Below, in pieces: positions 22,027 through 41,971 of a stretch of DNA of 64,000 nucleotides (positions are counted from its first letter, which is position 1; every line of letters begins with the position of its first letter). This DNA comes from a virus (taxonomy: Duplodnaviria; Caudoviricetes), in IMG/VR virus record IMGVR_UViG_3300008110_007313; one strand, written 5' to 3'. A program made the translations under genes and the position numbers. The notes below the pieces were generated by a model. The model saw only the letters and a list, made by a program, of their open reading frames with translations, was not told the origin of the DNA and made no database searches.

Positions 22027-24598
22027 TGTAATCTTCGTTTGTGGGTTGATCTTTTGTCTTAATATGATTTACAACTGCAGGAGTTTTTTTCTTGTCGGGA
22101 GCAACATACACATTCTGTTTAGTCTGTGTCTGTGTGTTTTGTATTCTCAATGACTTTGCTACTGGTTCTACTTTGATGTTTTCTGCTTCAGTTACACGTG
22201 GTGCTCGACGGAGATAATTTACAGCCATGCTCAACGCCTGGCCCACTGCAACAGTGGGCTTTTTACCAGGTACAGCATCGGCCACTACCACTCGCAGTTT
22301 GACCTTGCCGCTGGGCAACACATCGACCACTTTGGCATGTACCCGTTGATGATTAGAAAAGTTCTTGGTCAGGTCTAACACTTGTCCTGTGGACTCTTCC
22401 AAGGTAGCAGCCCAGCCTTGGTTTTCCCCTACAGCAGACTCTGCAGCAGTACCAATCAGATGCTTTGCATCGCCTGCCTTTTCCCAAGCGGCCCACATTG
22501 CTTTGCCTTGACTTGTTTGATTATAACTGGCTCGAATATCATTGCCTAACATTTTAGCATACGCATACATTGTGGATGCAATGCCTTTGTTTCTATATGC
22601 TGGATCAACCTCAGTGCCGCCACTTTCTAAGTAATCTGCGGATGGCATTCTTCTTCCGCCCGGAGATCTTACAATTATTTCAAATAGGATATGACCTATT
22701 TCCTTATTGCCGTCATAGGCTTTGATCCACAACAATGGAGCACCTTCAAAGTCCTCAGCGGTTGCTGTGTAAGTGTAATCACCAATTTTTTGTTTGTGTT
22801 TGAATCTTGGATTGAGTATGGCCGAGTTTATTGTTTCCGCCACACCTTGCGGTTGTGTTGCATTTACTTTATAGAACGGCTCAGAACCAAGTTTAGCAAG
22901 AAATGCATTAACACGTTTTTTAAATTCATCTGGGTTTGCACTAACCTCAGAATGTCCCATTGGCTGTAAATCTTTGTTGATGATTGCATCACCGGTCTTT
23001 TTCATAAAAGGTATTTGCGCTTCTACACTAGATAAATCGCCTAAAGCATTGTTTAGTCTAGCTGCACCGAGTGCTAACATTTTGCTGCCGTAAAATTTGT
23101 TAATTGAGTCTTCGCCGCCCTTGTTCAACCAGCCCGAAGAGTGCCGGCCAAACACAGGATACCACTTACCTGTTGGAACCGAAGCCTTGCCGCCGCCACC
23201 AGTACTAATATAATAAGGAACGTTAACACCGAGAACATTCATAACTACCATGATTCTGTCACCGGTGTTAACTACTTTGGCAGTACCTTTAGGATTAGTG
23301 GAAGAAGTAAATACAGGCAAGTCCACCAGACCTGATAGTTTATCTGCGTATTCAAGGCCTTCTGTCACACCTTCGTCATACTCATCACGACCCCAGGGTT
23401 CGCCGTATATCTTTTCCCAGTCTTGGTTGAGCGGTAGATCATTTTCCTGCCAGTATGAACCCAGTTGATCCTTTAACTGTGTGTCGCCTTGCAGGTATGC
23501 ATCAAACCCTGTCTTTAGTCCTTTTAAGAAACCATCACGAACTTGCTCAAAATGTGCTATGTCAGCTGCCTGACTTTGCAGTGTGCCAGCTTGTGCTAAG
23601 TCTTGTTTGGTCCATCCAGCATCTATTAGGTCCTGTAGTTCTTCTTGTTTTTGCTGGGAGAAATCATTGACAAAGTTTGCAGTAACAGCGTAATAACTTG
23701 AAGCAGAATCGCCGCCGGGTGCAAATTCATTTAGAGAGCCTTCCGCTACACCTTGGTCACCTCGACCAACCAATCTAATTAGATAACCTTGTTTGAAATG
23801 CACTGGATGATACATGACCACATTCATAGTACTGTCGTTATTCCAGGATATTTTTACATCGCCGCCAGCTGCGCGAATTTTGCCCATTATGTTTTCTATC
23901 TCTTGCTTGTTCTTATTAGGACCATACAAGGCATTGCCAAGATCATCTGCTAGTTGTAACAAATATGACTTTTCGTCTCCGCCATCGCCACTGGACGGAG
24001 CAAACTCGTTTAGTTCTGTGCCCATAGCTGTGTCTAATAGTTTGACCACTGTGGCAGCTAGTTTGGGATTGGCTTGTGTTCGGGGATACAGACTCATCAC
24101 AAGAGCCTGTTTTCGTTTGTCATTTAGCCGGGGCCATGCACCACGAATCTCTGTGGCCGATGTCATACCAGGACCAAACTCCACTGTGGGCAGGTAGGCC
24201 ATATAGGCATGTTGAGCAAACGGCTCAACATTTTTGCCTGTCCAGGGCTGTAGGTAACTGGGACTGCCATCTTTCTTTACCCCGCCTGGTCGTGGAGGCG
24301 ACCCACGATCTTTGTCACTGCGCACAAAGATCAGGGTATCTTGCTCAGGATTGTATCGGGCTGTTACTTCTTCGGCCTTGAACGGGCTTTTGACCTGGAC
24401 AAATCTGTTGGGTGCAACACCAGCTAGCTTGGCTAATTTTTCTTTGATTGCAAACGGAAATGGTCTAGCACTGGTGTCGTTGGTGGCCGCAACATAAACG
24501 TCAGCGTCGGGAAACGCATCTACTGCACTTTTGTACAGTGCATAGTGTCCTGCGTGAAACGGATGAAACCCACCGGGCATGATTACAATTGTGGTCAT
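21929..24598 (-). CDS. 889-aa multi-domain protein: cytidylyltransferase-like (HxGH) domain, unknown modules, GNAT acetyltransferase, basic C-terminal module
   Basis: MPGGFHPFHAGH; EVDPAYRNKGIASTMY acetyl-CoA-binding motif; modules separated by LNEFAP / GVAEG / GVTEG / GVAET. Confidence 0.8.
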   Translation of the reverse strand: MTTIVIMPGGFHPFHAGHYALYKSAVDAFPDADVYVAATNDTSARPFPFAIKEKLAKLAGVAPNRFVQVKSPFKAEEVTARYNPEQDTLIFVRSDKDRGSPPRPGGVKKDGSPSYLQPWTGKNVEPFAQHAYMAYLPTVEFGPGMTSATEIRGAWPRLNDKRKQALVMSLYPRTQANPKLAATVVKLLDTAMGTELNEFAPSSGDGGDEKSYLLQLADDLGNALYGPNKNKQEIENIMGKIRAAGGDVKISWNNDSTMNVVMYHPVHFKQGYLIRLVGRGDQGVAEGSLNEFAPGGDSASSYYAVTANFVNDFSQQKQEELQDLIDAGWTKQDLAQAGTLQSQAADIAHFEQVRDGFLKGLKTGFDAYLQGDTQLKDQLGSYWQENDLPLNQDWEKIYGEPWGRDEYDEGVTEGLEYADKLSGLVDLPVFTSSTNPKGTAKVVNTGDRIMVVMNVLGVNVPYYISTGGGGKASVPTGKWYPVFGRHSSGWLNKGGEDSINKFYGSKMLALGAARLNNALGDLSSVEAQIPFMKKTGDAIINKDLQPMGHSEVSANPDEFKKRVNAFLAKLGSEPFYKVNATQPQGVAETINSAILNPRFKHKQKIGDYTYTATAEDFEGAPLLWIKAYDGNKEIGHILFEIIVRSPGGRRMPSADYLESGGTEVDPAYRNKGIASTMYAYAKMLGNDIRASYNQTSQGKAMWAAWEKAGDAKHLIGTAAESAVGENQGWAATLEESTGQVLDLTKNFSNHQRVHAKVVDVLPSGKVKLRVVVADAVPGKKPTVAVGQALSMAVNYLRRAPRVTEAENIKVEPVAKSLRIQNTQTQTKQNVYVAPDKKKTPAVVNHIKTKDQPTNEDYIDEKWSDKYKQSINCDRPQGFSQRAHCAGRKK

Positions 24599-24603
24599 GC
24601 CTG

Positions 24604-24609
24604 TATTTA
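24604..24609 (-). promoter_or_regulatory. T4-like late promoter core TAAATA
   Basis: Minus strand ACTAAATACAGGCATG; the identical 16-mer precedes the gene starting at 34208. Confidence 0.65.
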
Positions 24610-24611
24610 GT

Positions 24612-25049
24612 TTACATATTTTCCAACAGCCAAAGGTAAGCAGGGGTAGTAAACTTCAAACTTACTGTGCCGTTGCAGCCTAATGTATTGTAAAATTTAT
24701 GATCTGAGTGTTCACTAGCACTGTTGAAACTGTGGCTGTATACCGCTTGTTCTCGAACAACTTGATCAATGTCGATGTCATCTATCTTGAAGTTGTTGAC
24801 TTCAATTAGGCTGTCGCTGATGATTTCTAATTTTTCATTGACCTGCGTGTGTTGCGTAGTTTTGTTTTTCAACACAATTTTTATTGTGTGCGGTTGCTCA
24901 ATCTCATCGTCAAATTCGTGGGTGACATGCAGGGTGTTGGTCACTTGATTGTGATCAAGCAAACATTGGGCATTAACCCAAACTTCCATGCCCAGTGGTT
25001 GTTGTACATTGCTGGGCACAATGTCAAACTCTAAGAGTGAAATGGTCAT
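24612..25049 (-). CDS. hypothetical protein
   Basis: 145-aa ORF coupled to the upstream gene. Confidence 0.65.
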   Translation of the reverse strand: MTISLLEFDIVPSNVQQPLGMEVWVNAQCLLDHNQVTNTLHVTHEFDDEIEQPHTIKIVLKNKTTQHTQVNEKLEIISDSLIEVNNFKIDDIDIDQVVREQAVYSHSFNSASEHSDHKFYNTLGCNGTVSLKFTTPAYLWLLENM

Positions 25050-25411
25050 TAGTAATTGATTGTTACAGAATTGATAGTGCCGCCTGAGAATCCTTCTACG
25101 CGGATTCTCATCCAGGTAAAATTACCAGTGATTGTGGTGGGATGATAATCAGTTAATGGGATAGTGGACCCATCGCCGTACACGTAGGTTTCAAACCACA
25201 CAGCATTGTCGGCGTTGCTGTCTAACGTGGCTTCTAGTCTCATGATGCCTTCAAAACCAGACACGCTGAACGTGATGGTCTGTAATCCGCCTCGACCGCG
25301 ATAGTAGTTGGCAGCTTTGACAGCATCTGACGGCCAATCTTGGCTGCTTCCGTCATAGTTGCCGGAAGGCACACCGTAGTCAGTGCTGCCAAGAATGATT
25401 TCAGTGGTCAT
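25049..25411 (-). CDS. hypothetical protein (beta-rich, possibly virion)
   Basis: 120-aa ORF coupled on both sides. Confidence 0.65.
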   Translation of the reverse strand: MTTEIILGSTDYGVPSGNYDGSSQDWPSDAVKAANYYRGRGGLQTITFSVSGFEGIMRLEATLDSNADNAVWFETYVYGDGSTIPLTDYHPTTITGNFTWMRIRVEGFSGGTINSVTINY

Positions 25412-25581
25412 TGTTTGAGTTCAACTTCTACAACAACACCAGCACCCACAAGCTCTTCGCTCACAGCAGTGATAGCCTGCACAACATCAGCACTGGCAAT
25501 GGTGCCAGGACCTGTGGGTTCGTCGTCTTTCATCAGCTTGGAAAGTTTGATGGTAATGATTTCTTCGTGTATTTTAGCCAT
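25408..25581 (-). CDS. small hypothetical protein (57 aa; below the ORF-track cut-off)
   Basis: MAKIHEEIITIKLSKLMKDDEPTGPG...VVVEVELKQ; ATGA overlap with the next gene; TAAATA 7 nt upstream (25589-25594). Confidence 0.65.
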   Translation of the reverse strand: MAKIHEEIITIKLSKLMKDDEPTGPGTIASADVVQAITAVSEELVGAGVVVEVELKQ

Positions 25582-25587
25582 AGTGTA

Positions 25588-26235
25588 TTATTTAGCCTTG
25601 ATGGTTAGAGTTTTGCGTACAATGCCTGGACAAACCAGTTGTAACATCACAAGATCTTGCATGTTGTTGTGATCCACAAAATAGTGACTCAAAGTATAAA
25701 AGTTGTTGCCTTTGCTGAGTTTGCGATGTAGTTCTTCAGTTATTCTAAAACAGTCACCGCGACTCAGTAAAAACTTAGACAAAATGTTCATGTTTTCTTT
25801 GGTCATGAAGCGTTCTCTAAGAAAAGTGCGATATTGATATTTGGGATTTTTCAACAGCAAGGTATCACGAGCACGATTTATAACAGCTTGCGTGGCCCAA
25901 CAATCTTGAGCATAGGGCAATGCACTCAAGCTTTGTAGGTCAGCCACAGAGTTGCTGTAAATGTAAACATGGTCATAGGTGAACACCACTTTGTGCTCGC
26001 CAAGGCTGACTAGACGATCTATTAGATCATGCAGATTTTTTTTAGCATCATCGTCTACCGTAGATGTATAGCGTCTAGGAGAATGCGTATTGTGCCAATG
26101 AACTCTGTGATCAATAAATTCATGGCTGAGTCCTCGCACGAAACTAACATGTTTGAGTTTAAAAGTCAGTCCGTATTCGTACTTGTCGTAGAATAGCCGG
26201 TCTTTAAAAGTTGGGTTAAAGATTAACGTTTCCAT
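25588..26235 (-). CDS. hypothetical protein
   Basis: Likely start ATG 26235 (METLIFNP), overlapping the end of clpA. Confidence 0.65.
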   Translation of the reverse strand: METLIFNPTFKDRLFYDKYEYGLTFKLKHVSFVRGLSHEFIDHRVHWHNTHSPRRYTSTVDDDAKKNLHDLIDRLVSLGEHKVVFTYDHVYIYSNSVADLQSLSALPYAQDCWATQAVINRARDTLLLKNPKYQYRTFLRERFMTKENMNILSKFLLSRGDCFRITEELHRKLSKGNNFYTLSHYFVDHNNMQDLVMLQLVCPGIVRKTLTIKAK

Positions 26236-28489
26236 TTTCGACTCGGATAAAACCATCAGCGTCCACAGTAGGCACAATGTTGGCAGTTACAACAAATTCA
26301 ATACTGTTGTTAACCCAGTCAGCTCGAACTGAACAATCACTCAGTCGATCAAACAAGATTTTCTTTGATAACGGAACTTTGATTAGTTCGTCAATCTTAC
26401 GTGCCAGGGGTCTTGCTCCCATTTTAGGATCGTAGCCTTTTTCGGCTAGAACGTCTATTACTGCTTCAGTGAGATCCAGTCGAATGTTCTTGGCATTCAA
26501 ACTTGTTTTGAGCTGGTCTACAAATTTTAACACAACTTTCTTGATACTGAGCTTGTCTAACTTGTTGAATCGGCAAATTTGATCAATACGATTGCGTAGT
26601 TCTGGCTTGAAGAACTCTTTCATTGCTCGGTCTTCGTTGCCTGTTTTTTCAAAACTACCAAAGCCAATGTTGTTGTTTTCATTGTCTCTAGCACCCAGGT
26701 TGGATGTCATGATGATCAAGGTATTCTTGCAGTCCACTCGCTTGCCATTGGCACCTGTGACGTGTCCTTCGTCCAGCATCTGCAACAGAATGTTGGTAAC
26801 ATCAGGGTGTGCTTTTTCAATCTCGTCAAACAAGATGATGGCATACGGGTTCTTGCTGAGATCTGAGATCAGCTTGCCGCCGCCCACGTTGCCATCTTCA
26901 AAGCCCACATAGCCTGGAGGAGCACCAATCAGCGAACTCACAGTGTGCTTCTCTTGAAACTCACTCATGTCATAGCGCAACAACGGCATGTCCAAGTTGT
27001 CACTCAACAGACGAGCTAGTTCTGTTTTACCTGTGCCAGTTGGTCCCAGGAACAAGAAGCTGGCCATGGGTTTTTTCTCATTGGCGATACCAGCAAAGCT
27101 GATGTACACACGCTCTAGCACAGCATCCACGGCTTGATCCTGTCCGTAGAGCTTTTGTTTGATATTGCTTTCAAGTTCAACAATTTTAGCACTGCGTTCA
27201 TTCTGCAAACGATCTGCAGGCACGCCTGTTGCACGGCTCAACTGTTGCTCGATCATGTCTTTGGTGATGGTGACCAAGCCTGCATCTTTTACACGCTCTC
27301 GAGCACAGGCAGCATCAATCAAGTCAATGCTTTTGTCGGGATTCTTTTTGTCATGAATATAACGATTAGCCAAATCTACCGCAGCGGTCATGGCCTCAGT
27401 TTCGATGAGAACATTATGGAACTGTTCAAGTCTGGGGCTGAGACCAATCAGGATCTGCTCAGTGGTTGCAGCATCAGGTTCATCAATGGCCAAGCGATAG
27501 AATCTGCGCATAAGAGCACGATCTTTCTCAAAGCTTTCATAGAACTCTTCCCAGGTAGTCGATGCAATGACTTTGAGATTGCCCTTGGTAATGGCTGGTT
27601 TCAGCATGTTGGCAAAGTCTAGACTGCTGTTAGAGCTAGCACCTGCGCCCTTCATGGTATGTGCTTCGTCCACAAACAAAATGCAATTCTTCTTAGACTC
27701 TAGTGCAGAAATTACAGCCTTGAACTTTTCTTCAAATTCGCCACGATACTTAGAACCTGCCAACAACGAGCCAATTTCTAAACTCCATACTTCGTGTCCT
27801 TTGAGAAACTCAGGTACACGACCTGCGTGAATTTCCTGGGCAAGGCCATCAATGATGGCAGTTTTACCCACGCCCGGGTCACCAACCATGAGCACGTTGG
27901 CCTTGAAACGTCGGGCCAGCACAGCAATCATATCTTCCAATTCTTGGCTACGGCCAATCAGCGGCTCCAGTTTATTGCCAGCGGCCTGTACAGAAATGTT
28001 TGTACAGTATTCGTTGAGAATGTCATTGGCTTGATCAGTGCTGAGTTTGGCCTCACTCTGTTGATAGTGTTTGTGCCAGAACTCTACAAACTCGGATTTT
28101 TTGACACCGTATTTGAGCAAGAAATAGTGTGCATGACTATTGGTTTCGGCCATGATACTAAGATACAGATCAACTGTTGTGAGCTGTCGCCGGCCAGTGA
28201 ACATGACCTGTACATTAGCACGATTAAAAATACGCTCCAGGGTTTGTGTTTTGCGAGGTTGATAATCAGTCTTGTCACTGACTAGATTGGATTGACTCAG
28301 TAGATAAGCCAACAATTCGTGGTCCAAGGTTTCAACATCGGTGCCGAATTTGTCAAGTACTCGACGAAACGGTTGGTGCCTGATTAGACTCAACAGCAGA
28401 TGTTCAGTTAACACATATTCATGTGAGTGATCCTTGGCCAGCTTTATAGCTGCATCTACCAACTGTTCAATTTCGGGATTGTTTTGCAT
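26216..28489 (-). CDS. clpA: ClpA-type AAA+ chaperone/unfoldase
   Basis: Clp N-domain and two Walker A motifs (GDPGVGKT, GPTGTGKT); LIGAPPGYVG, FDEIEKAH and GARPLAR motifs; no ClpB middle domain apparent at 757 aa. Confidence 0.9.
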   Translation of the reverse strand: MQNNPEIEQLVDAAIKLAKDHSHEYVLTEHLLLSLIRHQPFRRVLDKFGTDVETLDHELLAYLLSQSNLVSDKTDYQPRKTQTLERIFNRANVQVMFTGRRQLTTVDLYLSIMAETNSHAHYFLLKYGVKKSEFVEFWHKHYQQSEAKLSTDQANDILNEYCTNISVQAAGNKLEPLIGRSQELEDMIAVLARRFKANVLMVGDPGVGKTAIIDGLAQEIHAGRVPEFLKGHEVWSLEIGSLLAGSKYRGEFEEKFKAVISALESKKNCILFVDEAHTMKGAGASSNSSLDFANMLKPAITKGNLKVIASTTWEEFYESFEKDRALMRRFYRLAIDEPDAATTEQILIGLSPRLEQFHNVLIETEAMTAAVDLANRYIHDKKNPDKSIDLIDAACARERVKDAGLVTITKDMIEQQLSRATGVPADRLQNERSAKIVELESNIKQKLYGQDQAVDAVLERVYISFAGIANEKKPMASFLFLGPTGTGKTELARLLSDNLDMPLLRYDMSEFQEKHTVSSLIGAPPGYVGFEDGNVGGGKLISDLSKNPYAIILFDEIEKAHPDVTNILLQMLDEGHVTGANGKRVDCKNTLIIMTSNLGARDNENNNIGFGSFEKTGNEDRAMKEFFKPELRNRIDQICRFNKLDKLSIKKVVLKFVDQLKTSLNAKNIRLDLTEAVIDVLAEKGYDPKMGARPLARKIDELIKVPLSKKILFDRLSDCSVRADWVNNSIEFVVTANIVPTVDADGFIRVENGNVNL

Positions 28490-28546
28490 GAACTTCCTTT
28501 TTTTAACAACACAAAGTTTTTTTATTATAACGCAATTTCACATGAA

Positions 28547-29329
28547 CTAGCGATGTTTTTGGATGGCTTCGGCTAAATCACTGCTAATTTTATCCGGAAT
28601 CTGGGCCAGTAGTCGTACCATCATATCACCTTTTCTGCCCTGTTGATCTCGTAGTCCTTGCTCTCGTAGTCGCAACTGTGTGCCCGGCTGACAACGTGCC
28701 GGCACACGAATGGTTAATTTTTCACCGTAGATATTTTCTACCACAATGTCACCGCCCAGTATCAAATCCCAAACCACCACACGATGATCTCTAGTGAGAT
28801 TCAGGGCCTGTCTGTGCCACACAGAATCTGGATGTATTCTAAAACTAATTACCAAATCTTGGCCACCAGGTCCCACACCCGGATATTGAACATTGTCACC
28901 ATCATTGAGTCCCAAGGGAATGTCAATTTCCAAAGTTTGATTGCCTTGAGCACTGTTTACTGCAATGGTTTTGCGTCCGCCTTGGGCAACATCTTGTAGA
29001 CGCACCCACAGACTCATACGAAGATGATTGCGTCTGGGATGTTGTCCAAATCCTGCGCCGCCGAACATCTGACTAAAAATGTCATTGATGTTAACATGTC
29101 CGCTGTCGCTGAATCCACTGAAGCCGTTGAACTGTGGTCTGGGATTGTCGTATTCACTTCGTTTCTGGTCATCGCTGAGTACAGCATAGGCAGCTTGTAC
29201 TTCTTGGAATCGAGCCTTGTCTCCTCCTTTGTCAGGATGGTGCTGGCTGGCTAACCGACGATAGGCCTTCTTGATTTCATCTTGACTGGCACCGCGAGAT
29301 ACTCCCAATGTTGCATAGTGGTCTGTCAT
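28547..29329 (-). CDS. DnaJ/CbpA-type co-chaperone (J-domain plus C-terminal domain, no zinc finger)
   Basis: DHYATLGV...[18 protein letters not shown] (HPD motif); start ATG 29329. Confidence 0.9.
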
Positions 29330-32081: not shown

Positions 32082-33086
32082 TCAGCAGTTCCATTTACGC
32101 AGGGCCAGAGCCTTGCGTGTGGGCTTGCCGTTGGGCTTTTTCATTGGCCCTTTGACCCCTGACATTCTAGCGCAGAAACTCTTACGGCGTTTGGCAGCTT
32201 TTGATCCAGGCTTGAGTTTTGATGGTTTGGTAGTCACTGCCATTTGTAATTTTGAACCTGGGTTCTCTCTACGATAACTGGCCACACCTTTGGCGTTGAG
32301 TCCACCTTTTTTGCTCTTGCCTTCTTTTCTGCGCCAGGCCGCTGTTTCATACAGCACATTGTCCGGAAGTGCTTCAAAACTTTCCCATACCAGATCTTCA
32401 CTCACGCGATTCTTTTGGGCCATTTCTGACACTAGATCTTCCATGGCTTCGAACATCTCATCCACTTCCGGATCTACTTCGTCTGATGCTTCTTCTGAGT
32501 ACATGTAGTCCCACACAGTGACCAACATTGATTTGGCCACAGCAATCTTTTCCTGACACCATTCAGGCAAGTTATCACCGCTTTGAATTAACTCATCAAT
32601 GCCTTCTACAGCACGGCTCAGTGTTTCAAGGTTATTGTCGGCCATGCCTGCTTCGTCATCGTATTCAGGATTGTAGTCTTCTGCTATGCCTTGTTGACCC
32701 GACATATCCATCAGTTGTCGAACATAGAAATTATAATGACCACGACGGCTGTTGTATTCTCTATTGCCCAGCACAGTCTTTAATGCGGCCACAGCATCAC
32801 TTGCTTCTGAACCACGCATTATTTTTAGTGCGTCAGTCACAAGTGAATCCACACGCTGTGAACCTTCAGCTACCCCTTCTGACTTGTTGCCCCAGTTGCC
32901 AGCACCTTTTTTGCGACACTGTACCAGTCGACCCGAAGCATACGCTGACGGCCATACCTTGGCACTGGCTTTGACTTTGTGATAGCAAGCATCTTTCTTT
33001 TCTGCCAGGACTAGGTCACTGAATGCAGGACCACCGCACTTAGGGCAAGTCATTTGAGATTCGTTTACAAGTTGATTGATTTTCAT
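32082..33086 (-). CDS. modular protein of short conserved-looking acidic and basic domains
   Basis: Leader MKINQLVNES; modules DACYHKVKA..VWPSAYASG..VQCRKK, LPEWCQEKIAVA and AAWRRKEGKSKKGGLN...RRKSFCARM separated by GVAEG/GIAED. Confidence 0.7.
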   Translation of the reverse strand: MKINQLVNESQMTCPKCGGPAFSDLVLAEKKDACYHKVKASAKVWPSAYASGRLVQCRKKGAGNWGNKSEGVAEGSQRVDSLVTDALKIMRGSEASDAVAALKTVLGNREYNSRRGHYNFYVRQLMDMSGQQGIAEDYNPEYDDEAGMADNNLETLSRAVEGIDELIQSGDNLPEWCQEKIAVAKSMLVTVWDYMYSEEASDEVDPEVDEMFEAMEDLVSEMAQKNRVSEDLVWESFEALPDNVLYETAAWRRKEGKSKKGGLNAKGVASYRRENPGSKLQMAVTTKPSKLKPGSKAAKRRKSFCARMSGVKGPMKKPNGKPTRKALALRKWNC

Positions 33087-34208: not shown

Positions 34209-34213
34209 GCCTG

Positions 34214-34219
34214 TATTTA
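34214..34219 (-). promoter_or_regulatory. T4-like late promoter core TAAATA
   Basis: ACTAAATACAGGCATG, identical to the site at 24604-24609. Confidence 0.65.
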
Positions 34220-34795
34220 GTAACCAAAATCAAGATTACGTTGCTTTAGCTTTTGCCAGGTCTGTGTGTATGTTGCAAACTCAGTGTGTTGGTACTGTTC
34301 TAAATTTTCTCGCATGAAACTAGAAAAATCATCCTGGCCAGTGTCAATGCAGAACACCTGATCTGCCCACCAATCTACCGTGGTTTGATTGTAGTATTGC
34401 CAGTGATGTTCCAGCGCCATGTTCATGGTATGATCTAACCCATGCTCTAGGATTTCTGGCCGATGCAGGTGTTGAGTCCAGACTTGCCAGCAGCGATTAT
34501 AACTAGGCGCAAAATGACTTTTGATTTTGATAATTTGTCGACCTGGAAAATGCTGAAATAGCAGTTGGGTGTCAAGGCAGTGTGTAAGCTCAATGAGATT
34601 GTGTCTTGACTTCAGTTGAGTTGACTCTTTGGGGTAGGGCCTGGTATCGGGATCCTGGTAGTTGATTTCTGGAGTTGGGTCTGGCCCTGAGTGACTGTGT
34701 GCGTGTTGGTTGTGACGCCATTGTTTTTGCAGAAGATACCTGGCCAGTCGATTGCCCCCACTGCCGGGAAAATAAGCAATTACGCAGGCATTCAT
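34217..34795 (-). CDS. hypothetical protein with sulfotransferase/P-loop-like N-terminus
   Basis: Likely start ATG 34795 (MNACVIAYFPGSGGNRLARYL), coupled to the upstream stop. Confidence 0.55.
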   Translation of the reverse strand: MNACVIAYFPGSGGNRLARYLLQKQWRHNQHAHSHSGPDPTPEINYQDPDTRPYPKESTQLKSRHNLIELTHCLDTQLLFQHFPGRQIIKIKSHFAPSYNRCWQVWTQHLHRPEILEHGLDHTMNMALEHHWQYYNQTTVDWWADQVFCIDTGQDDFSSFMRENLEQYQHTEFATYTQTWQKLKQRNLDFGY

Positions 34796-35868
34796 GAGTA
34801 GTAGTAAACAGACTGATCGCGACTGGGAAACAGATCCACAGGCGAATCTTCTCTGCGTATGTCCAGAGTCAAACAATGAAGTCCGCCATCCCAGAATGTT
34901 CTAGTACGAAATGGCAAGCTGTGCGCAGTGATTCCAAATTTTTCCAAGGCTCTAAATACAGCTTCGTTTTCTCCCAGCATGAGCACATTTTTTTCGTCAA
35001 CAACCAAGCAGTTGACTTCAAAGTAAGTTTCTGTATAATTGCCCACCCAGTCTAGTGCATGTTTGATCACATGATCATTAAATGCTTGATTATTACTAGC
35101 GCCGGCAAGCCAAAATTTACCATTGGCTCCAGGAGTATTTCTTCCATGTTGATTGTTTGAAAACTCCGGCTTTGCAATATTGATCTGTTCCCAGCCAGGA
35201 AATGTTCGATCATAGTCTGAAAAATAACGGCTGGTCAGCAGTAGCCCGGGCTTGATTGCAGCAAAACATGCGTCAACATGCCCGCCGTTGTTCAACAGAT
35301 GCAAACGACTGTCAGCAAAATACGGTTTTATTTTTTGATCAAATTCTTGTTGCAATAGATCAATTTGACTGTTTCGTTGTACGTGAAACACATCAAGATA
35401 AAGATCCTTGCCGACTCTCACAGTGTTTGCGCCGCTGAGACTGCCCAGGTGTTCGAGTCTGATTTCTGGTATCACCTGTGATCCAGCATCAGCAGCATAA
35501 CGGTCAAGTGCTGGCTGCCAAGCTTGGGCCATCCATTCAGGATAAAACAATTTGTTTCCGTGCGCTAAAAAATGATCTCTGGGGGTAATCTGCGGCTTCA
35601 GCAAGGTAGTGGGATGATGCGGATGCCCGTCGGGAGATATGAAATCATCTATTTTGTGATACTCAGGCCGCACTACATCGACTCCAAATTCCTGGAGTTT
35701 ACTCTGGATCGTGTTGAGATCTGCCTGAGTTTTTTCAGTGAGTTCATAAAACACATCTCGAACCTGAGACTCAAGGTGATCATAAAAATGGCTGGGGTAA
35801 ACATCTCCCAGCCATACTTCTTTCAGCTTGCCCCAGTTGGTAAAACTATTAACCAGTGGTGTTGACAT
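34792..35868 (-). CDS. amidinotransferase (pentein superfamily, glycine/inosamine amidinotransferase-like)
   Basis: NWGKLKEVWLG, PRD, GHVDACF, FEVNCLVVDEK and WDGGLHCLTLDIRR (catalytic Cys) motifs. Confidence 0.85.
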   Translation of the reverse strand: MSTPLVNSFTNWGKLKEVWLGDVYPSHFYDHLESQVRDVFYELTEKTQADLNTIQSKLQEFGVDVVRPEYHKIDDFISPDGHPHHPTTLLKPQITPRDHFLAHGNKLFYPEWMAQAWQPALDRYAADAGSQVIPEIRLEHLGSLSGANTVRVGKDLYLDVFHVQRNSQIDLLQQEFDQKIKPYFADSRLHLLNNGGHVDACFAAIKPGLLLTSRYFSDYDRTFPGWEQINIAKPEFSNNQHGRNTPGANGKFWLAGASNNQAFNDHVIKHALDWVGNYTETYFEVNCLVVDEKNVLMLGENEAVFRALEKFGITAHSLPFRTRTFWDGGLHCLTLDIRREDSPVDLFPSRDQSVYYYS

Positions 35869-36526
35869 CGGAATTCCTTTTCAATGTATTTAAGAATTCC
35901 TGTGTTTGGGCGGTTTTAATTCCAGTAACTTGCAGTGTGGCTCTAGGCACATGCCCTGCATTGGCTGTGGCATGTGGTACATTGACCCAATCAAATGTTG
36001 AAACATCGCCTGCACGCCAACCAGTCCAGGCATAGTTGCCATAACTCCAGAAATGTCCTTGCTGCCAGTCTGTGAGCTGTACAAAATAGCGTACCACTTG
36101 GCTGGGATCAGCCGGCATCCATTTTTCCAGCTTGTCTAAGTGCAAGTTCCACACTTGTCCAGGATGTTGCACATGTATGCGGGCCATGCTTTTTTCCAAG
36201 CCAAATTGATCAGCAATGCGCTGAAACACCGGCGCTAGATCATAAGTCAAGTTTGTGACCACGTAGTCGCGCCCATAGCCTTGCTGTTCTAGGTCATGGT
36301 CTTCTTGATCGTACTCTTCTGTGGCACGTTTTAATGGATCTGACTCGCGACCTCGAGTACGCCAGGTCACAGATTTTGATACAGCGACCGCAGCAGCTAG
36401 TTCCGCAGTCCAGTCTGGCTCGATGTGTCCTAGGTGTTGCACAGTGTCCCAGCGTGGATCCTGTTGTGTAGTATCAAAATGATATTGGCTGCGGGCTCGG
36501 GTTATTTCCCAATTTGATTGTGTCAT
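35849..36526 (-). CDS. cupin / 2OG-Fe(II) oxygenase-like protein
   Basis: HVQHPGQVWNLHLDK (HxD) and distal VPHATANAG..RATLQVTG. Confidence 0.6.
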   Translation of the reverse strand: MTQSNWEITRARSQYHFDTTQQDPRWDTVQHLGHIEPDWTAELAAAVAVSKSVTWRTRGRESDPLKRATEEYDQEDHDLEQQGYGRDYVVTNLTYDLAPVFQRIADQFGLEKSMARIHVQHPGQVWNLHLDKLEKWMPADPSQVVRYFVQLTDWQQGHFWSYGNYAWTGWRAGDVSTFDWVNVPHATANAGHVPRATLQVTGIKTAQTQEFLNTLKRNSDVNTTG

Positions 36527-37161
36527 ATTACTGTTACCTCAATATCGTTGTTGGTGTAATTTTGTCTGTAACTGCTGTCTGGCCAGGCAATGTTTAATGC
36601 ATTACATAATTCCAAATTAGTGCGCACCTGTTTTGATCCGCGGTGTTTGTAATTCCACATAGTGTCAGTGATACCTTGATTTTGTTTCTTGATACACGTG
36701 GCCATGTGCTTTAAATCTTGATAATATTCACGGTATAATGGATACGTTATATCAAAATGGCCACATTTTACCCACCAACCCAGGCAAGAATCATTGCTGC
36801 GATGAACCAACACAATGGCACAATCCATGAACTGTTCACGCAAGTGTCGGATATTTTGTTCATACGAGAAGATGTGGCTTTTGATGATTCTAACTCCTTG
36901 GGAGTCTTTGCTAAACGGGTAATCAAAGCTGGCCTCCAATTGTTGTCGGTCGAGTATGGTGAGATCCTCGGGCAAAGGACAAGCCATGCCAGGATCCCAA
37001 TATGCACCCAAATGCATAAGTTCTCGCTGACCTGATGCATCGTGGTAATACGTCCACTCGTCTCTGTAGTCTGAACGATCTATCGATGGCGAGTAATAGA
37101 TGTTTTTTACAACACTGCTCCATTTTGAGCCTGGAGCGCCGGCTACAAAGACATATTTCAT
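36523..37161 (-). CDS. P-loop / sulfotransferase-like protein
   Basis: MKYVFVAGAPGSKWSSV, RIIKSH and IVLVHR motifs; start ATG 37161. Confidence 0.55.
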   Translation of the reverse strand: MKYVFVAGAPGSKWSSVVKNIYYSPSIDRSDYRDEWTYYHDASGQRELMHLGAYWDPGMACPLPEDLTILDRQQLEASFDYPFSKDSQGVRIIKSHIFSYEQNIRHLREQFMDCAIVLVHRSNDSCLGWWVKCGHFDITYPLYREYYQDLKHMATCIKKQNQGITDTMWNYKHRGSKQVRTNLELCNALNIAWPDSSYRQNYTNNDIEVTVI

Positions 37162-38120
37162 TTGTTGGGAGTAATTCGTCGAGCAATAGGTTGCCAAGTT
37201 TGTTGCAGTCGAGCCATGCTTGCTCGCACTCCGGCAGCTGAATGTTCTGTAGGTGTGATATACATCATGTTTTCACGAAACTTGACAGCGGCTTCAGCTG
37301 ATTGAATAGCAGGCACAAACTGATCACGGTACCATGCTTGAATTTCAGGGGGTGTGCCTGGTGGCAATACCATGTTCCAGCAACCGTGAATGCTGAGTCC
37401 AGGCGCTGCTTTGCTCATCAAAGGAATATGCTCTAGCCCAGGCAAGGCACGTGTGTCTGCAATGCCAATGAACTTGAGACGTCCTGCTTGCACATGTGGA
37501 TAGCCCACAGCCACTGGTGTTACACCAAACTCTACGTGCCCGCCCATGACATCTAGTAGAGCCTGTGCTGGGCCTTTGTACATGGCAGTTTGAAGGTTGT
37601 CGCTACCTGCTACACTTACTTTGTCTACAAGATATTCCACTGCCAGCTTGTGTCCACCACCGCCAATGGCCACAGTCATTCGTTGTCGATTACGAATGGC
37701 TGCAACAAATTCTTCTGGTGTGTTGATCTTGCTTGACGGATGTGCCCAAAATGCCAGGGGTGATCTAGCAATGTTGGCAATGGGTTCCAGATCCATGGGG
37801 TTGTACTTGATCATGTCCTTGAACCAGATTTCGGGAGTGACCCAGTTTGATTGGCAAGCAGGCACACTTATGGTGTGACCATCACGTGGTGTTGTGACAA
37901 AATGATTGATAGCAATGTTGCCGTCAGCTCCTGGGCGATATTCAGAATTGAATTTGGCTCCAGTTTTACGTTCCACAATGTCTGCAACGATTCTAAACGA
38001 GATTTCGTTGCCAGCACCAGGACCATTGGGGAATATCACCGTAACAGGTTTAGTGGGCTGCCAAGCCAGCGCAACAGTAGGCGCCAAAACTAAGGCTGCA
38101 AGTAATTTTTTCATTGACAT
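37158..38120 (-). CDS. Bug/TctC family tripartite tricarboxylate transporter substrate-binding protein
   Basis: Signal peptide; WQPTKPVTVIFPNGPGAG, YRPGADGNIA, YKGPAQALLDVMGGHV and LPPGTPPEI motifs. Confidence 0.85.
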   Translation of the reverse strand: MSMKKLLAALVLAPTVALAWQPTKPVTVIFPNGPGAGNEISFRIVADIVERKTGAKFNSEYRPGADGNIAINHFVTTPRDGHTISVPACQSNWVTPEIWFKDMIKYNPMDLEPIANIARSPLAFWAHPSSKINTPEEFVAAIRNRQRMTVAIGGGGHKLAVEYLVDKVSVAGSDNLQTAMYKGPAQALLDVMGGHVEFGVTPVAVGYPHVQAGRLKFIGIADTRALPGLEHIPLMSKAAPGLSIHGCWNMVLPPGTPPEIQAWYRDQFVPAIQSAEAAVKFRENMMYITPTEHSAAGVRASMARLQQTWQPIARRITPNK

Positions 38121-38195
38121 AGGGTTCCTTAAATAGTATACTTGATTTACAGCAACAGAGCAAAAATTTTTATGGTCTGTTGTAAAATTCTCTTT

Positions 38196-38203
38196 TATTT
38201 ATA
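38196..38203 (-). promoter_or_regulatory. full T4 late consensus TATAAATA
   Basis: tatttata on the plus strand, about 75 nt upstream of the Bug/TctC operon start. Confidence 0.5.
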
Positions 38204-38212
38204 AAATTTTTT

Positions 38213-38941
38213 ATGAACACCAAAATTTTTAATCTAATCACAAAAAATTTGCAACAGGCATTTGCTTTGCCCAAGTATGCAGATATTGTGATCAACGCAG
38301 ACACTGTAGTCAACACACTGCCTTGGACCCCGGCACGCTACTCAAAGTTCAAAGACGCTGTGGAAGCAGAACTTAGCTTGCCCTGCGAGTATCGTGGCAC
38401 CCTGCGTGAAATTACAGACGACCTAAGCGAACGCTACACACATAGGTTTTTTGCTGAGATTTGGAAACCACGCACAGGCGACTATGAACACACGGGCTGG
38501 GAATTGGCTGACGAAGTTAACAAGCTGAATCCAGAGAAAGTATTAGATGTAGGCTGTGGATATCATCCTTTTAAAGGACGCATACACAATCTAATTGGTA
38601 TTGATCCCTACAACAACTGTGCTGACTATGAAGTGGACATCTTGGACTACAAGGTCAAGCCCGAAAGCTACGATGTTATTATTGCCCTGGGATCAATCAA
38701 CTTTAACTCACGAGATGAAATTGAATCACGATTCGCGCACTGTGTGACGTTGTTGAAATCCGGCGGCCGGTTCTTTTTACGAGCCAATCCAGGGATAACA
38801 CACAAGACAGGGCCTTATGTGGAAATCTTTAATTGGACTTTTGAAGTTGTAAATGAATTTGCCGAAAAGTACAATTTAAATCTAGACACATTCAAGAAAG
38901 ATGCCAATGATAGATTGTATTTTGTCTATACCAAACGATGA
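38213..38941 (+). CDS. class I SAM-dependent methyltransferase
   Basis: VLDVGCG motif I, IGID, YDVII..GSINF and LLKSGG motifs. Confidence 0.85.
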   Translation: MNTKIFNLITKNLQQAFALPKYADIVINADTVVNTLPWTPARYSKFKDAVEAELSLPCEYRGTLREITDDLSERYTHRFFAEIWKPRTGDYEHTGWELADEVNKLNPEKVLDVGCGYHPFKGRIHNLIGIDPYNNCADYEVDILDYKVKPESYDVIIALGSINFNSRDEIESRFAHCVTLLKSGGRFFLRANPGITHKTGPYVEIFNWTFEVVNEFAEKYNLNLDTFKKDANDRLYFVYTKR

Positions 38942-39157
38942 TTATTTGCCGGCAGCTCTTAGATTAGCCCCATTATTGAAGCTGGGACTGTAAGGACTGT
39001 TGCCCGGAATGTTGCCCTTGCGAGCTGACCAGTAGTAGCCTGCACGATGCCCCGAACAGTCCTTGGTACAAGGTGAGCCCAGAAAACTCAACTCATCCAA
39101 CTGTTCTTCTTGACTTTTTTTGATCTGGCGCCGACGCATAAATTCACGCAGTCTCAT
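38942..39157 (-). CDS. small Cys-containing protein with capsid-targeting-like leader
   Basis: MRLREF; LSFLGSPCTKDCSGHRAGYYWS module. Confidence 0.65.
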   Translation of the reverse strand: MRLREFMRRRQIKKSQEEQLDELSFLGSPCTKDCSGHRAGYYWSARKGNIPGNSPYSPSFNNGANLRAAGK

Positions 39158-40329
39158 AGTCCAGCCAACTCTTTGAGTCTGCGCACTGTTTCGCCCATGG
39201 TACCAGTCCTAGGCTGATCAAACATATCTGCTTGTCTATCAGCTCTGGCACGACTGATGGTAGGCAGCACATCATCGCTGCCAGCAGGCAATTCCACAGG
39301 TTCGTTGTACATATAGGTCACATTAGAATTGGGATCCTTGGTGACCTTGGGCACTCGTGGACCACGGTCCACTGTGGTAGGCAGCGGTTGATCACGCATA
39401 GGAGCAGTCTGAGTTGCAGCTGGTTGACTCTTGGCAGCAGGTTCAACTGGGGGCTTGATTCCAATTGTAGGAGGAGCGTATGTGTTAGTGTTGGCCGGCT
39501 TATTGATTTCTGTGTTGCGTTGATCTTTGTCTTTTTCTCTTTTCTTGCGACTGTCAGATCGGCGTGTTTGTCCAGATCCTGCAAACGCAGAAGGTTCTTT
39601 GTCGGCCTTGGGCAAATCAACCTGGCTTCGACTCACAGGTTCTTTGTTACCGCCCTGGCGCAACTGACGCTCCATGCCATCTATTTCGCGATTGAGTTGA
39701 TTGAGTTCGTTGTCGAGACTGTCATTTTCTTGATCTAGATTGGCGATCTGTTGGCTTTGTTTTTTGCTGAGATCACGTAGGCGATCTAGAGTTTGATCTT
39801 GACGAGCATTGGTTTTGTTCTGTGCACCAAAACTTTGGTCAGTGGTAGTTTGGTTTTCTATTTCGTTGCGTATAAACGCTTCTATGTCAGATCTAGCTGA
39901 CGGATACTTGGCATAGGCCTGACGCAGTGCCACACTGAGTTTGGGGTCTTTTACTCCTGATCTGCTGAGATCAGGTTGTTCTTTTTTTTCGCGTTCAAAC
40001 AGCCCGGCCTGTCCTGCACTCATGTTCACAGGCGTAACATTGAGATTGAGTCGGTCAGCCAAGGCCAAGAACTTGTCGGACCTGCTCATGGTGTTGTACA
40101 CAAAGTCTCGTTTGTCACTCATGTCCTGTAGCTGATTGTAGTGATCAGCCAAGGCATCCACTTCTGGATCGCTGAGTTTGATCACATCGTCGCCAAAGGT
40201 CAGCGTCAAGGTAGCGGCAGTTTTACGCCCTTGATAAAAATCAACCAGCATTTTGAAATTGGCGCCGCCAAGTGCTTTGCTGCCTACGGCTCCGTATTCT
40301 AACAGTGTAACAACGTCTGTGATTTTCAT
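39154..40329 (-). CDS. coiled-coil hypothetical protein
   Basis: 391 aa; central heptad-like region, Pro-rich tail; TATAAATA 5 nt upstream (40335-40342). Confidence 0.65.
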   Translation of the reverse strand: MKITDVVTLLEYGAVGSKALGGANFKMLVDFYQGRKTAATLTLTFGDDVIKLSDPEVDALADHYNQLQDMSDKRDFVYNTMSRSDKFLALADRLNLNVTPVNMSAGQAGLFEREKKEQPDLSRSGVKDPKLSVALRQAYAKYPSARSDIEAFIRNEIENQTTTDQSFGAQNKTNARQDQTLDRLRDLSKKQSQQIANLDQENDSLDNELNQLNREIDGMERQLRQGGNKEPVSRSQVDLPKADKEPSAFAGSGQTRRSDSRKKREKDKDQRNTEINKPANTNTYAPPTIGIKPPVEPAAKSQPAATQTAPMRDQPLPTTVDRGPRVPKVTKDPNSNVTYMYNEPVELPAGSDDVLPTISRARADRQADMFDQPRTGTMGETVRRLKELAGL

Positions 40330-40333
40330 AATT

Positions 40334-40789
40334 TTATTTATAAGCAGTGCGATTGATGTTCAAGCGTTGCTGAAGTCTTTGTATAGCAGTGTCGGCTTTT
40401 TGTATCAAACTGGCATAGTTGTCTTGATCGGCACCTCGCATGTACAATGCTAAGTCTGTGTCAGCTTCTAGTCCAGGGTTCATGAGTCCGCGTTTTTCGG
40501 CCGCTGTTCGCAGTTTTTCCAGCTGTTGCATTTTGTCAATGGCTGCGTTTACTCCAGACAACTTGGTTTTGAGTTCTGAATAGCTGTATTTGCTATAATC
40601 TGTAGGTGGAGTAGGTGCCGGGCGTCCAGCCTTGGCAGTCATAAATCGTTGAGCCATGTTTTTCTCAAAATCCTGTTGCCAAGCAGCTACGTCTTGATCT
40701 CGTTGTTGTGTGATAGCACCACGAGCCTGTTGCAGAGCAGCCAGGGCTTCAGGTTTGAGTGCTTCTTGTAAAAATTCACTGGCTCTCAT
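40334..40789 (-). CDS. hypothetical protein with capsid-targeting-like leader
   Basis: Begins MRASEFLQEA. Confidence 0.7.
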   Translation of the reverse strand: MRASEFLQEALKPEALAALQQARGAITQQRDQDVAAWQQDFEKNMAQRFMTAKAGRPAPTPPTDYSKYSYSELKTKLSGVNAAIDKMQQLEKLRTAAEKRGLMNPGLEADTDLALYMRGADQDNYASLIQKADTAIQRLQQRLNINRTAYK

Positions 40790-41397
40790 TTTTTGTCCCG
40801 TGGTTGAACAGCAGTGGGCATGTTCTTGTATCTACGTGTGTTGGGGTCGTATACTGTCTTCATGGGACCAGCACCAGCCAACTTCTTGAGTCGGTTGACC
40901 ATGTCATCAAAGTCTGCAGGGTCGTGACGTCCACCAATTTTTTCCTTGGCACCTTCCATGTTGGCAATAGGTGCCACAGGAGCATCGGCTACATCCTTTT
41001 CTAACTGGCTGATGTCGCCTTCGTCCATTTCGTCAGGTTGTGCGGTGCTGTGAATTCTCCCGGTACCAGCGGTTGGAACAGCACCACTGGTACGAGCAAA
41101 AGGATCTGCGGGCAAGCGTTTGCTTTGTCCTTTGAAAATATCATCTCGACGAGTTTTTGATCCGTCACCGCCATAACCTGTGGCAGTTAAGTCTCGGCCG
41201 TATTCGCTGCCGCGATGAGCATTGTAGTAATCATCTCTGTCATAGTTGCCTTCCGCCACACCTTGCTTCTTGAGAATATCCAGTGCGTGTTTTTCCATCT
41301 GTTTTTTGGTAATAGGTTTACCGGGTGCTTCCTTACCTTTGAAATAATCAGAACCTTTTTTCACGACCTGGTTGTGGTGCTGACTTATCCATTTCAT
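40786..41397 (-). CDS. modular protein; probably the frameshifted 3' half of the upstream ORF
   Basis: Contains KQGVAEG and DEMDEG linkers; overlaps the upstream ORF by 50 nt around an A6 run. Confidence 0.55.
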   Translation of the reverse strand: MKWISQHHNQVVKKGSDYFKGKEAPGKPITKKQMEKHALDILKKQGVAEGNYDRDDYYNAHRGSEYGRDLTATGYGGDGSKTRRDDIFKGQSKRLPADPFARTSGAVPTAGTGRIHSTAQPDEMDEGDISQLEKDVADAPVAPIANMEGAKEKIGGRHDPADFDDMVNRLKKLAGAGPMKTVYDPNTRRYKNMPTAVQPRDKK

Positions 41398-41971
41398 TCA
41401 AGCCTTCCGCCACACCTTTTTTCATTTTGTCTAACTGCGTTAGTCTTGCGAGCTCTTGATCAGTCAAGGGGTTGTCTAACTTGGGCACCTTGGGTTTGAC
41501 GTTGGTGGGGTAGTATGCTGTTTTTGCACGATTTTTTGTACCAGGAATTTGTTGGTTGGCCACACGCACGCCTTCATCAACATCATCTTTTGCCGTACCT
41601 TGAGACTTTTCAGCACGAGCAATTCTATTGCCTAGGCTGTTTAACTCATGTTCCATGGCGCGAGCTTGACGCTCGCGATCAGTCAAGTTCTGTTCACGAT
41701 CTGCATACTGCCAATTATTGCCGCCCAGTGAGTCATACTCATTTTTCATTTGTTCGTATTTGGCTTTTAGTTCTGGCAATTGAGCTAGATCTGCCTGGGC
41801 AGCATTAGAGTCTGCCTGTGTTCGTTCTGCATCGCGCTGTGCCATGCGTTGACGACTGCGCTCACGTTCTTGTTCTGGTGTTCCAGCAATGCGAACATTC
41901 ATACCCCGGGCGCGGGCCATTGCTGCAAATTGGTCAGCTAGATTTTCTGTTACAACTTGATTTATTTTCAT
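41348..41971 (-). CDS. modular protein with leader MKINQVVTEN
   Basis: Ends GVAEGLNEMDKSAPQPGREKRF, that is, about 15 residues into a new module. Confidence 0.65.
   Translation of the reverse strand: MKINQVVTENLADQFAAMARARGMNVRIAGTPEQERERSRQRMAQRDAERTQADSNAAQADLAQLPELKAKYEQMKNEYDSLGGNNWQYADREQNLTDRERQARAMEHELNSLGNRIARAEKSQGTAKDDVDEGVRVANQQIPGTKNRAKTAYYPTNVKPKVPKLDNPLTDQELARLTQLDKMKKGVAEGLNEMDKSAPQPGREKRF

Follow-up and report, generated by a model that had tools for sequence, protein, structure and literature searches.

Modular shuffling in T4-type phages is mediated by early-promoter stem-loop (PeSL) cassettes, which also form mini-circles (PMC2839356, PMC4122927). In the T-even adhesins, exchanges occur at conserved motifs – glycine-rich motifs in gp38 and His boxes in gp37 (PMC3157838, citing Tetart et al. 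1996, 1998). The internal proteins (IP) of T4 carry a capsid-targeting sequence that the gp21 prohead protease removes by cutting after Glu (PMC9026906, PMC5694885, PMC3012670). In IPIII this sequence is the first 10 residues, of which residues 8 and 10 are needed for processing (PMC9026906), and x-X-E, with the cut behind Glu, is the cleavage rule of T4 and giant-phage head proteases alike (PMC5694885). Polyvalent proteins, thought to enter the host together with the injected DNA, combine unrelated enzymatic or effector domains in one chain, as summarized in PMC7824862 (citing Iyer et al. 2017). The subject here is a short element of 18–21 bp in a 64,000-nucleotide stretch of DNA from an uncultured virus (Caudoviricetes; IMG/VR record IMGVR_UViG_3300008110_007313), the whole of which is called the window. 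The element recurs in frame in three multi-module genes, where it encodes the peptide (Q/K/E)GVAE(G). Comparison of related sequences locates module exchange at the element. The reading favored here, which is considered moderately probable, is that it acts at two levels, as DNA and as peptide, as an in-frame connector between exchangeable modules in the cargo proteins of a PA5oct-like jumbo phage.

The window was searched with the 17-mer CAAGGTGTGGCGGAAGG, allowing up to 3 mismatches. There were 6 matches, against 0.13 expected from shuffled sequence, and the shuffle null was rejected. Five of the matches are copies of the motif, all on the minus strand (Table 1), while the sixth (15668–15684, 3 mismatches) is probably a chance match. 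Six-frame translation showed every motif copy to be in frame and inside the long open reading frames (ORFs) of the three genes. A sequence-only reading of this DNA had described the repeat at six sites in different genes, always in frame, and this holds: 5 of the 6 sites were recovered by the 17-mer scan and all of them by translation. A seventh, degenerate copy, QQGIAED in the 334-amino-acid (aa) gene, was not in that list. The same reading took the copies at 23358 and 32863 to have drifted in DNA while keeping the peptide. The copy at 32863 does keep it, with other codons (GGG GTA GCT), but in the copy at 23358 the Ala has become Thr.

The 889-aa ORF contains three motifs, beginning at residues 283, 410 and 585. 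From the N-terminus it encodes a cytidylyltransferase-like module, a junction with the peptide LNEFAP, a module of unknown type, QGVAEG, module 2, EGVTEG, module 3, QGVAET, a GNAT module, a junction with the peptide ENQGWAAT, an OB-like segment, and a conserved, Cys-rich, basic C-terminal tail. This ORF was compared by tblastn with ten protein-level relatives (L121–L130). The blocks of homology were residues 1–195/198, 282–411/415, 408–609, 584/586–747 and 842/849–889, and the block ends at residues 195–198, 282, 408–415 and 584–586 coincide with the motif positions. In L124, the first module is followed by QGVAE and then directly by the C-terminal tail, and in L122 and L121 different modules lie between the first module and the tail. 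In L126, modules 2 and 3 of the window are found in two separate genes, each bounded by a canonical GVAE and each with different neighbors behind it. Nucleotide identity between the 889-aa gene and L126 rises from ca. 20–45% to ca. 90% within the motif itself; at the copy at 23739 the rise is from ca. 20–40%.

The modules of the 334-aa gene are also found apart from one another. This gene encodes, in order, a leader, a Zn-ribbon-like N-terminal module, SEGVAEG, a middle module, QQGIAED, and C-terminal modules of which DUF6321 is the last. The N-terminal module (residues 1–70) and the middle module (76–132) occur whole and alone in dozens of other loci, and sub-parts of the C-terminal segment (138–334) recur separately in dozens of other loci. 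The module downstream of QQGIAED (…EYDDEAGMA…) lies behind the canonical QGVAEG in L015 and L021, where the upstream modules differ. The placement of motif copies at domain junctions, proposed from the sequence alone, is borne out in both genes.

A two-sided homology test was applied to 560 junctions from all fetched loci, which gave 1352 partner pairs with homology reaching the motif. Ten of these pairs (0.7%) were homologous on both sides of the motif, against 74–80% at control points set 105 nt into the flanking modules. In one near-identical strain, replaced segments lie beside motif copies. In a strain from run X7 that is more than 99% identical to the window over the flanks, the segment 22434–22826 is replaced by 426 other letters. 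This segment encodes residues 591–722, the GNAT module between QGVAET and ENQGWAAT. In the same strain, 32853–33426 is replaced by 155 letters, with the edges ca. 10 nt (three codons) from SEGVAEG and at a gene start. That the repeat is a recombination joint, with breakpoints mapping to it in related genomes, is therefore well supported as a pattern – by the two-sided test, the X7 strain and the identity switch in L126 – and likely as a mechanism.

The motif is conserved at silent sites beyond what codon usage would give, as the sequence-only reading had supposed. Codon usage of the window was computed from 56 ORFs: GCG makes up 6.9% of Ala codons, GTG 33.5% of Val codons and GGT 34.4% of Gly codons. 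Despite this share, GCG is used in 4 of the 5 GVAE copies in the window, and 4 of the 5 read GGT GT(G/A) GCG GAA. When five GVAE sites were simulated, the observed sharing of codons had P = 0.004–0.008, and GCG at four or more of the five Ala positions had P = 1e-4.

The same pattern extends across IMG/VR. A degenerate scan for KQGVAEG, with third positions left free to avoid codon ascertainment, gave 124 distinct sites in 107 loci with a mean GC content of 41%. The consensus of the connector is AAG CAA GGT GTG GCG GAA GGC (K-Q-G-V-A-E-G). These codons were observed at 83% (AAG), 94% (CAA), 93% (GGT), 83% (GTG), 87% (GCG), 91% (GAA) and 73% (GGC) of sites, against backgrounds in the same loci of 33%, 70%, 41%, 19%, 11%, 78% and 30%, respectively. 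The silent positions are thus 73–94% fixed, mostly on disfavored codons, in contigs ranging from 33 to 71% GC. The flanks are not conserved; information content at positions −1 and +21 is near background (0.1–0.2 bits). Among 616 near-matches (at most 4 mismatches in 18), third positions varied no more than about twice as much as the first two.

Several explanations for this conservation were considered and set aside. Codon bias was ruled out by the simulation in the window, by the codon shares in IMG/VR, and by a control from a neighboring module: at invariant residues of that strongly conserved module, homozygosity of 4-fold codons was 0.44, on common codons, compared with 0.65–0.80 in the motif, on rare ones. 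Pairs of junctions that share a nearly silent-saturated module (codon identity 0.36–0.52) still have a codon identity of 0.71–0.79 in the adjoining motif, and so the conservation is not explained by descent shared with the module. Concerted evolution among many copies within a genome is not the cause either, because each large contig has just 2–5 clustered copies. Shine-Dalgarno-like pausing or internal initiation was likewise rejected, as the canonical coding ranks only 1421 of 2048 synonymous variants for pairing with the anti-Shine-Dalgarno sequence.

The 17-mer AAGGTGTRGCGGAAGGC was found in at least 120 IMG/VR contigs from many studies and habitats. Among the matches listed, 179 of 179 exact 17-mers read (K/Q/E)GVAEG in frame within long open frames, and 602 of the 616 near-matches lie in open frames. 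Many loci have 2–5 copies, 150–1500 nt apart, separating unrelated peptides. Five large related contigs (G001–G005) have 2–5 copies each, clustered within tens of kilobases. By comparison, 596 Gb of bacterial and archaeal genomes contain just two occurrences of the exact 21-mer, the first of them in a phage-like polyprotein contig in a metagenome-assembled genome. The other, in a deaminase-like ORF (…TKQGVAEGNKVFG…HEPCSMC…) at minus-strand position 3933 of the Rhizobiales contig UEIJ01000023.1 (L230), is probably a coincidence, with ca. 0.27 expected by chance in that collection; no further cellular occurrence was found. A full-text literature search for the peptide 'GVAEG' returned no relevant paper and no description of the linker.

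The peptide is also conserved in a way that is consistent with proteolytic processing. Seven ORFs in the window have a short leader: MRAKEFAE, MRAQEFVIE, MRASEFLQE, MKINQLVNE, MKINQVVTE, MRYREILE and MNITE. Leader-bearing ORFs lie at 13098–14563, 33083–33430, 40334–40789, 41348–41971 and 32082–33086. In ca. 2 Mb of related loci (L009–L214), 76 distinct ORFs begin with MRAxEF[IVL]xE, and the leader sometimes runs straight into QGVAEG. A hydrophobic-x-Glu sequence is found within the first 12 residues of 56% of motif ORFs and 24% of other ORFs. Leader codons are mostly the common ones AGA and GCA, and so conservation at the DNA level is weaker in the leader than in the linker.

Behind one conserved module, present in 21 loci, the linkers include GVAEG, SMAEG, SVAEN, AINEF, SILEG, SIDEA, SVEES and NVNEN, among others. 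Glu is at P1 in 18 of the 21, and a hydrophobic residue is at P3 in about 19. The variants thus mostly keep hydrophobic-x-Glu, as a head-protease rule predicts. A T4-type S77 protease (PF03420, phrog_207) and gp23 were found in the motif-bearing contigs G003 and G004, in which the major capsid protein has many LLE/ILE/LKE sites at its N-terminus. In PA5oct, gp212 bears the annotation 'head maturation protease', and each of the five large contigs encodes a ClpP homologue of it. No T4-type S77 prohead protease was found in the 64-kb window. The earlier proposal of a protease site after Glu is strengthened by the hydrophobic-x-Glu rule by the leaders resembling the T4 capsid-targeting sequence and by the virion structural genes next to the motif genes, and is weakened by the presence of S77 in just 2 of the 5 contigs. 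By analogy with T4, it is plausible that the peptide is a head-protease site, and the motif genes probably encode cargo polyproteins targeted to the capsid. ClpA in the window and ClpP in relatives suggest a phage-borne Clp system, which may act as chaperone/protease or in head maturation.

Table 1. Copies of the connector element, the genes that contain them, and associated genes in the window
Feature	Coordinates	Strand	Details
Motif copy PQGVAET, CAA GGT GTG GCG GAA AC	22833..22849	-	2 mismatches; module 3 / GNAT junction
Drifted copy DEGVTEG, GAA GGT GTG ACA GAA GG	23358..23374	-	3 mismatches; module 2 / module 3 junction
Motif copy DQGVAEG, CAA GGT GTA GCG GAA GG	23739..23755	-	1 mismatch; N-terminal part / module 2 junction
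Degenerate copy QQGIAED, CAA GGC ATA GCA GAA	32679..32693	-	Six-frame translation; 334-aa gene
Copy SEGVAEG with drifted silent sites, GAA GGG GTA GCT GAA GG	32863..32879	-	Six-frame translation; 334-aa gene
Motif copy KQGVAEG, CAA GGT GTG GCG GAA GG	41249..41265	-	Exact 17-mer match
Motif copy KKGVAEG, AAA GGT GTG GCG GAA GG	41403..41419	-	1 mismatch
889-aa multi-module ('polyvalent') gene	21929..24598	-	Pfam CTP_transf_like 6-94, Acetyltransf_1 616-682
334-aa gene, leader MKINQLVNE	32082..33086	-	Pfam DUF6321 256-332, phrog_727
Split multi-module gene, leader MKINQVVTE	40786..41971	-	207-aa ORF 41348-41971 and 203-aa ORF 40786-41397
Two virion structural protein genes, directly upstream of split motif gene	41971..43103	-	phrog_13138, phrog_12928
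151-aa gene, leader MRASEFLQE, directly downstream of split motif gene	40334..40789	-	
Leader-bearing cargo-type genes without GVAEG motif	13098..19850	-	Pfam/PHROGs matches; DNA-similar starts (repeat family D20)

The favored reading brings these observations together as follows. Crossovers inside the 18–21 bp element would cause modules to be gained, lost or replaced in frame. We infer that exchange takes place by homologous or short-homology recombination, most likely by the phage's own recombination during mixed infection. If only copies with the canonical letters take part in exchange, the canonical sequence would spread with each new junction, and copies no longer used (23358, 32863 and 32679) would drift. 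At the peptide level, the hydrophobic-x-Glu followed by Gly, Ser or Ala would, by analogy, be cut by a T4-type or giant-phage head-maturation protease. A leader of 9–10 residues, M-R-A-x-E-F-Φ-x-E (Φ, hydrophobic), would send the chain into the prohead in the manner of the T4 capsid-targeting sequence. Cleavage of the loaded chain would then separate the modules, which would accompany the DNA. As far as is visible, exchange involves neither a site-specific recombinase nor an attachment site that folds.

Several points weigh against this. Recombination, cleavage and packaging are all read from sequence. By the standards of T4 genetics, homologous recombination would need more than 18–21 bp to be efficient. 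Canonical and drifted copies are similarly one-sided (0.77–0.61), and so there is no sign that shuffling is limited to canonical copies. The silent sites may instead be under selection for some function at the RNA or DNA level. The 889-aa ORF has no leader (it begins MTTIVIMPGG). S77 protease and gp23 were not detected in G001, G002 or G005, of which G001 (343 kb, 99% complete) is the closest complete relative; an S78 search of G001 was also negative, and the ClpP homologue of PA5oct gp212 was the only one of the head proteases sought that was found there. The leaderless ORF and the S77 and gp23 results in G001 are the reason that cleavage and packaging are given here as predictions. A broader version is more tentative still, and is put at slightly less than an even chance: that the element is a self-perpetuating, dual-coded standard connector found across lineages of large aquatic phages. 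Its silent sites would be held because the DNA is the substrate of exchange (by short homology or through some enzyme still to be named), phages could pass injected effector modules to one another in frame, as integrons do with their cassettes, and the same codons would specify a head-protease site that releases each module.

The main alternative, which is rather unlikely, is that selection acts on the peptide alone. GVAEG would be kept as a protease site or interdomain linker, illegitimate recombination would occur anywhere, and selection would retain the chimeras that happen to be joined by a linker. This would account for the fact that every copy is in frame and in the sense orientation, that codon positions one and two are about twice as conserved as position three, that the same junction can carry linker variants with other residues, and that canonical and drifted copies are equally one-sided. 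The silent sites would then need a separate nucleotide constraint, such as rare-codon translation kinetics, an RNA-binding factor or mRNA processing. However, pausing at an anti-Shine-Dalgarno match fails as such a constraint, and the motif forms no local structure. Silent sites are fixed on disfavored codons across the whole range of GC content and do not decay along with the adjoining module, and recent exchanges switch nucleotide identity within the motif itself. An origin in chance, codon bias, or chimeric assembly of metagenomes at a shared k-mer is hardly credible. The related sequences are all metagenome assemblies, and unitigs from run X11 end at the motif. Against this, the shuffle and codon nulls were rejected, frames stay open for hundreds of codons across the junctions, the element occurs in many studies and habitats, and independent contigs run across the junctions of the window (record 1 of run X10, for instance, covers 23482–23767 with 0 differences). 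At 21 bp, the element is also no longer than the smallest k-mer sizes usual in assembly.

The sequence-only reading had suggested an integron-like mechanism without an obvious integrase. In such a system, an unrecognized recombinase would bind the site of 17–21 bp and move modules as circles. The element does have sharp edges, the size of a recombinase site, a nearly virus-specific distribution and cassette-like one-sided homology, and the PeSL mini-circles of T4-type phages are a precedent for circles that form between short repeats (PMC2839356). The absence of an obvious integrase was confirmed: among the ca. 50 ORFs of the window scanned against Pfam or PHROGs, none matched an integrase, recombinase, resolvase or transposase. 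Nor was there a hairpin or attC-like structure at the motif. The 21-mer folds at −0.7 kcal/mol and has no dyad symmetry, and 81-nt windows at four copies fold at −10.9 to −14.9, compared with −15.2 ± 5.0 for controls. Among the IMG/VR matches listed, all copies sat within ORFs, shared one frame and pointed in the sense direction, a restriction that a pure DNA site would not need. Motif-bearing phages also have different sets of head genes, and a single dedicated enzyme would have to travel with the motif. The mechanism is therefore not supported, and is considered very improbable.

Other junctions in the 889-aa ORF have features of their own. The peptide LNEFAP is found at residues 196 and 289 (window 23996–24013 and 23717–23734, minus strand), and the silent sites of the two copies differ. 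It recurs in relatives, often directly behind GVAEG, and is itself an L-x-E site. The ENQGWAAT junction, at residue 725 (22403–22426), also recurs in relatives, and the module replacement in run X7 ends there. The C-terminal tail (21929–22080) is basic and contains Cys (…DEDYIDEKWS.KYK.SINC…GFSQRAHC.GRKK), and it is kept in L121–L125 regardless of the modules that precede it. Similar basic Cys tails, resembling DUF6321, close the leader-bearing ORFs at 13098–14024 and 32082–33086. In the cargo architecture, such a tail might serve as a second constant element. Contig joints from 23755 to 41249 (side 20), 41247 to 41402 (side 24), 32849 to 23736 and 22026 to 41250 were left unused; they probably result from the motif matching several copies.

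The third motif gene is split. Its two motif copies bracket a mini-module of ca. 46 aa, and its two ORFs overlap by 50 nt (41348–41397) in different frames at a run of six A, with the change of frame at ca. 41361. The homologous stretch is read through in L013, and at 41361 the relatives from runs X11 and X13 are 37 letters longer. These ORFs are thus a single gene, interrupted by a 37-nt indel that could be either genuine variation or a fault of the assembly. On the same evidence, the possibility that the copy at 41403 serves as the ribosome-binding site of the 203-aa ORF, with its ATG 5 nt downstream, was dropped.

Judged by homology and gene order, the window is part of the PA5oct / Rak2 / Atu_ph07-like assemblage of jumbo phages. 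Its structural proteins are 38% identical to those of PA5oct, and the two share the gene order PhoH, two virion structural proteins, DnaJ, ClpA (26216–29362 and 41971–44004 in the window). The PhoH–ClpA block is ca. 13 kb larger in the window than in PA5oct, and the motif genes are included in this expansion. PA5oct gp189, a homologue of a virion structural protein of the window, was seen in virions by electrospray ionization tandem mass spectrometry (ESI-MS/MS) according to its database record. A megablast search of 21 kb of the window against cultured phages gave no match. Cultured cyanophages (ACG-2014f and S-SKS1) have homologues of the 334-aa protein, in which the canonical junction is absent.

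Other genes of the window have a similar make-up. The leader-bearing genes without the motif encode a NUDIX protein (MRAKEF…), a 180-aa protein (MRAQEFVIE…), and a 1760-aa polyvalent protein (MNITE…; 14568–19850) with NTP_transf_2, HExxH, DUF6934 and Amidoligase_2 domains. Together, the motif genes and their neighbors encode cytidylyltransferase-like, GNAT, NTP_transf_2, zincin HExxH, DUF6934, amidoligase, NUDIX and DUF6321 domains. A segment of the 1760-aa ORF, EIDEGVMSRAGAAAALAAAVAMSPAQA, resembles a signal, twin-arginine translocation (TAT)-like or transmembrane segment, and segments like …SRRGFLRGLGAAAVAG… come after junctions in L121 and L055. Some modules may be directed to the membrane or periplasm. 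The surroundings of the 334-aa gene (30104–34208) resemble a lysis cluster, with a holin-like protein with three transmembrane segments (weak match), a 206-aa lysozyme/chitinase-like ORF, an Rz1-like LysC (weak match) and a 170-aa membrane/coiled-coil ORF. Elsewhere, extensive imperfect direct DNA repeats with periods of 36 and ca. 51 nt are found at 5868–6350 and 55949–58260. They lie within a 375-aa ORF and within 877-aa and 500-aa ORFs that adjoin tail-fiber-like genes, and these ORFs probably encode repetitive fiber or beta-helix proteins.

If the favored reading is correct, modular evolution of the Botstein type could be tested at the level of protein domains, with one short sequence read both as a DNA crossover site and as a peptide processing site. 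It would explain how large phages quickly renew their repertoire of probably injected proteins. The 21-mer and the MRAxEF leader provide a simple sequence handle for cataloguing this cargo in metagenomes, and the arrangement suggests a natural design rule by which a single gene could load a phage head with several foreign proteins. Under any reading, silent-site conservation on rare codons over such a range of GC content is unusual for a coding linker and needs explaining.

Of the known systems, integrons resemble this one in the cassette-like gain, loss and reordering at a short repeat. Integrons use IntI and a folded attC to move promoterless gene cassettes, whereas neither was found here and the cassettes are in-frame protein modules. 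The integron analogy holds only as 'cassettes at a repeat', and the motif-mediated homologous shuffling of T4-type phages is a closer analogue. PeSLs too are short DNA motifs that flank variable, mostly non-essential segments, and insertions, deletions and replacements end at them; their exchange is attributed to homologous recombination between motif copies. However, PeSLs are intergenic, consist of a promoter and a terminator hairpin, and move whole genes, while the element here is coding and unstructured, moves domains in frame, and specifies a putative protease site as well.

The T4 internal proteins (IPI, IPII, IPIII and Alt) share with the proteins described here a short N-terminal leader ending in hydrophobic-x-Glu – MKTYQEFIAE in T4 and MRAxEFΦxE here. 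The T-even IP loci likewise have diverse, fast-changing cargo behind a constant tag, beside head or virion genes. Repoila and colleagues reportedly proposed (EMBO J, 1994) that conserved leader and promoter blocks mediate the shuffling of IP genes. Unlike here, the T4 internal proteins are single small genes; here many modules are in one frame with internal repeats of the site, and the joint is 18–21 bp inside coding sequence with its silent sites fixed. A T4-type protease was not detected in the closest relative, G001, and cleavage and packaging are predicted.

The motifs of gp38 and gp37 are in frame and separate hypervariable segments, as here, and exchanges in or near them give chimeric proteins. 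The adhesin motifs belong to the structure of a single fold, within one gene family, whereas the linker here joins unrelated folds in many genes and lineages and uses rare codons. Polyvalent proteins also have several unrelated domains per polypeptide, like the 889-aa protein (CTP_transf_like and GNAT) and the 1760-aa protein; in the accounts of them consulted, no universal linker conserved at the DNA level and no role as an exchange point is described. What appears, from these comparisons, to set the element apart from its precedents is the combination of unrelated folds in one frame, occurrence in phages with different head-gene sets, rare codons, and a putative processing site.

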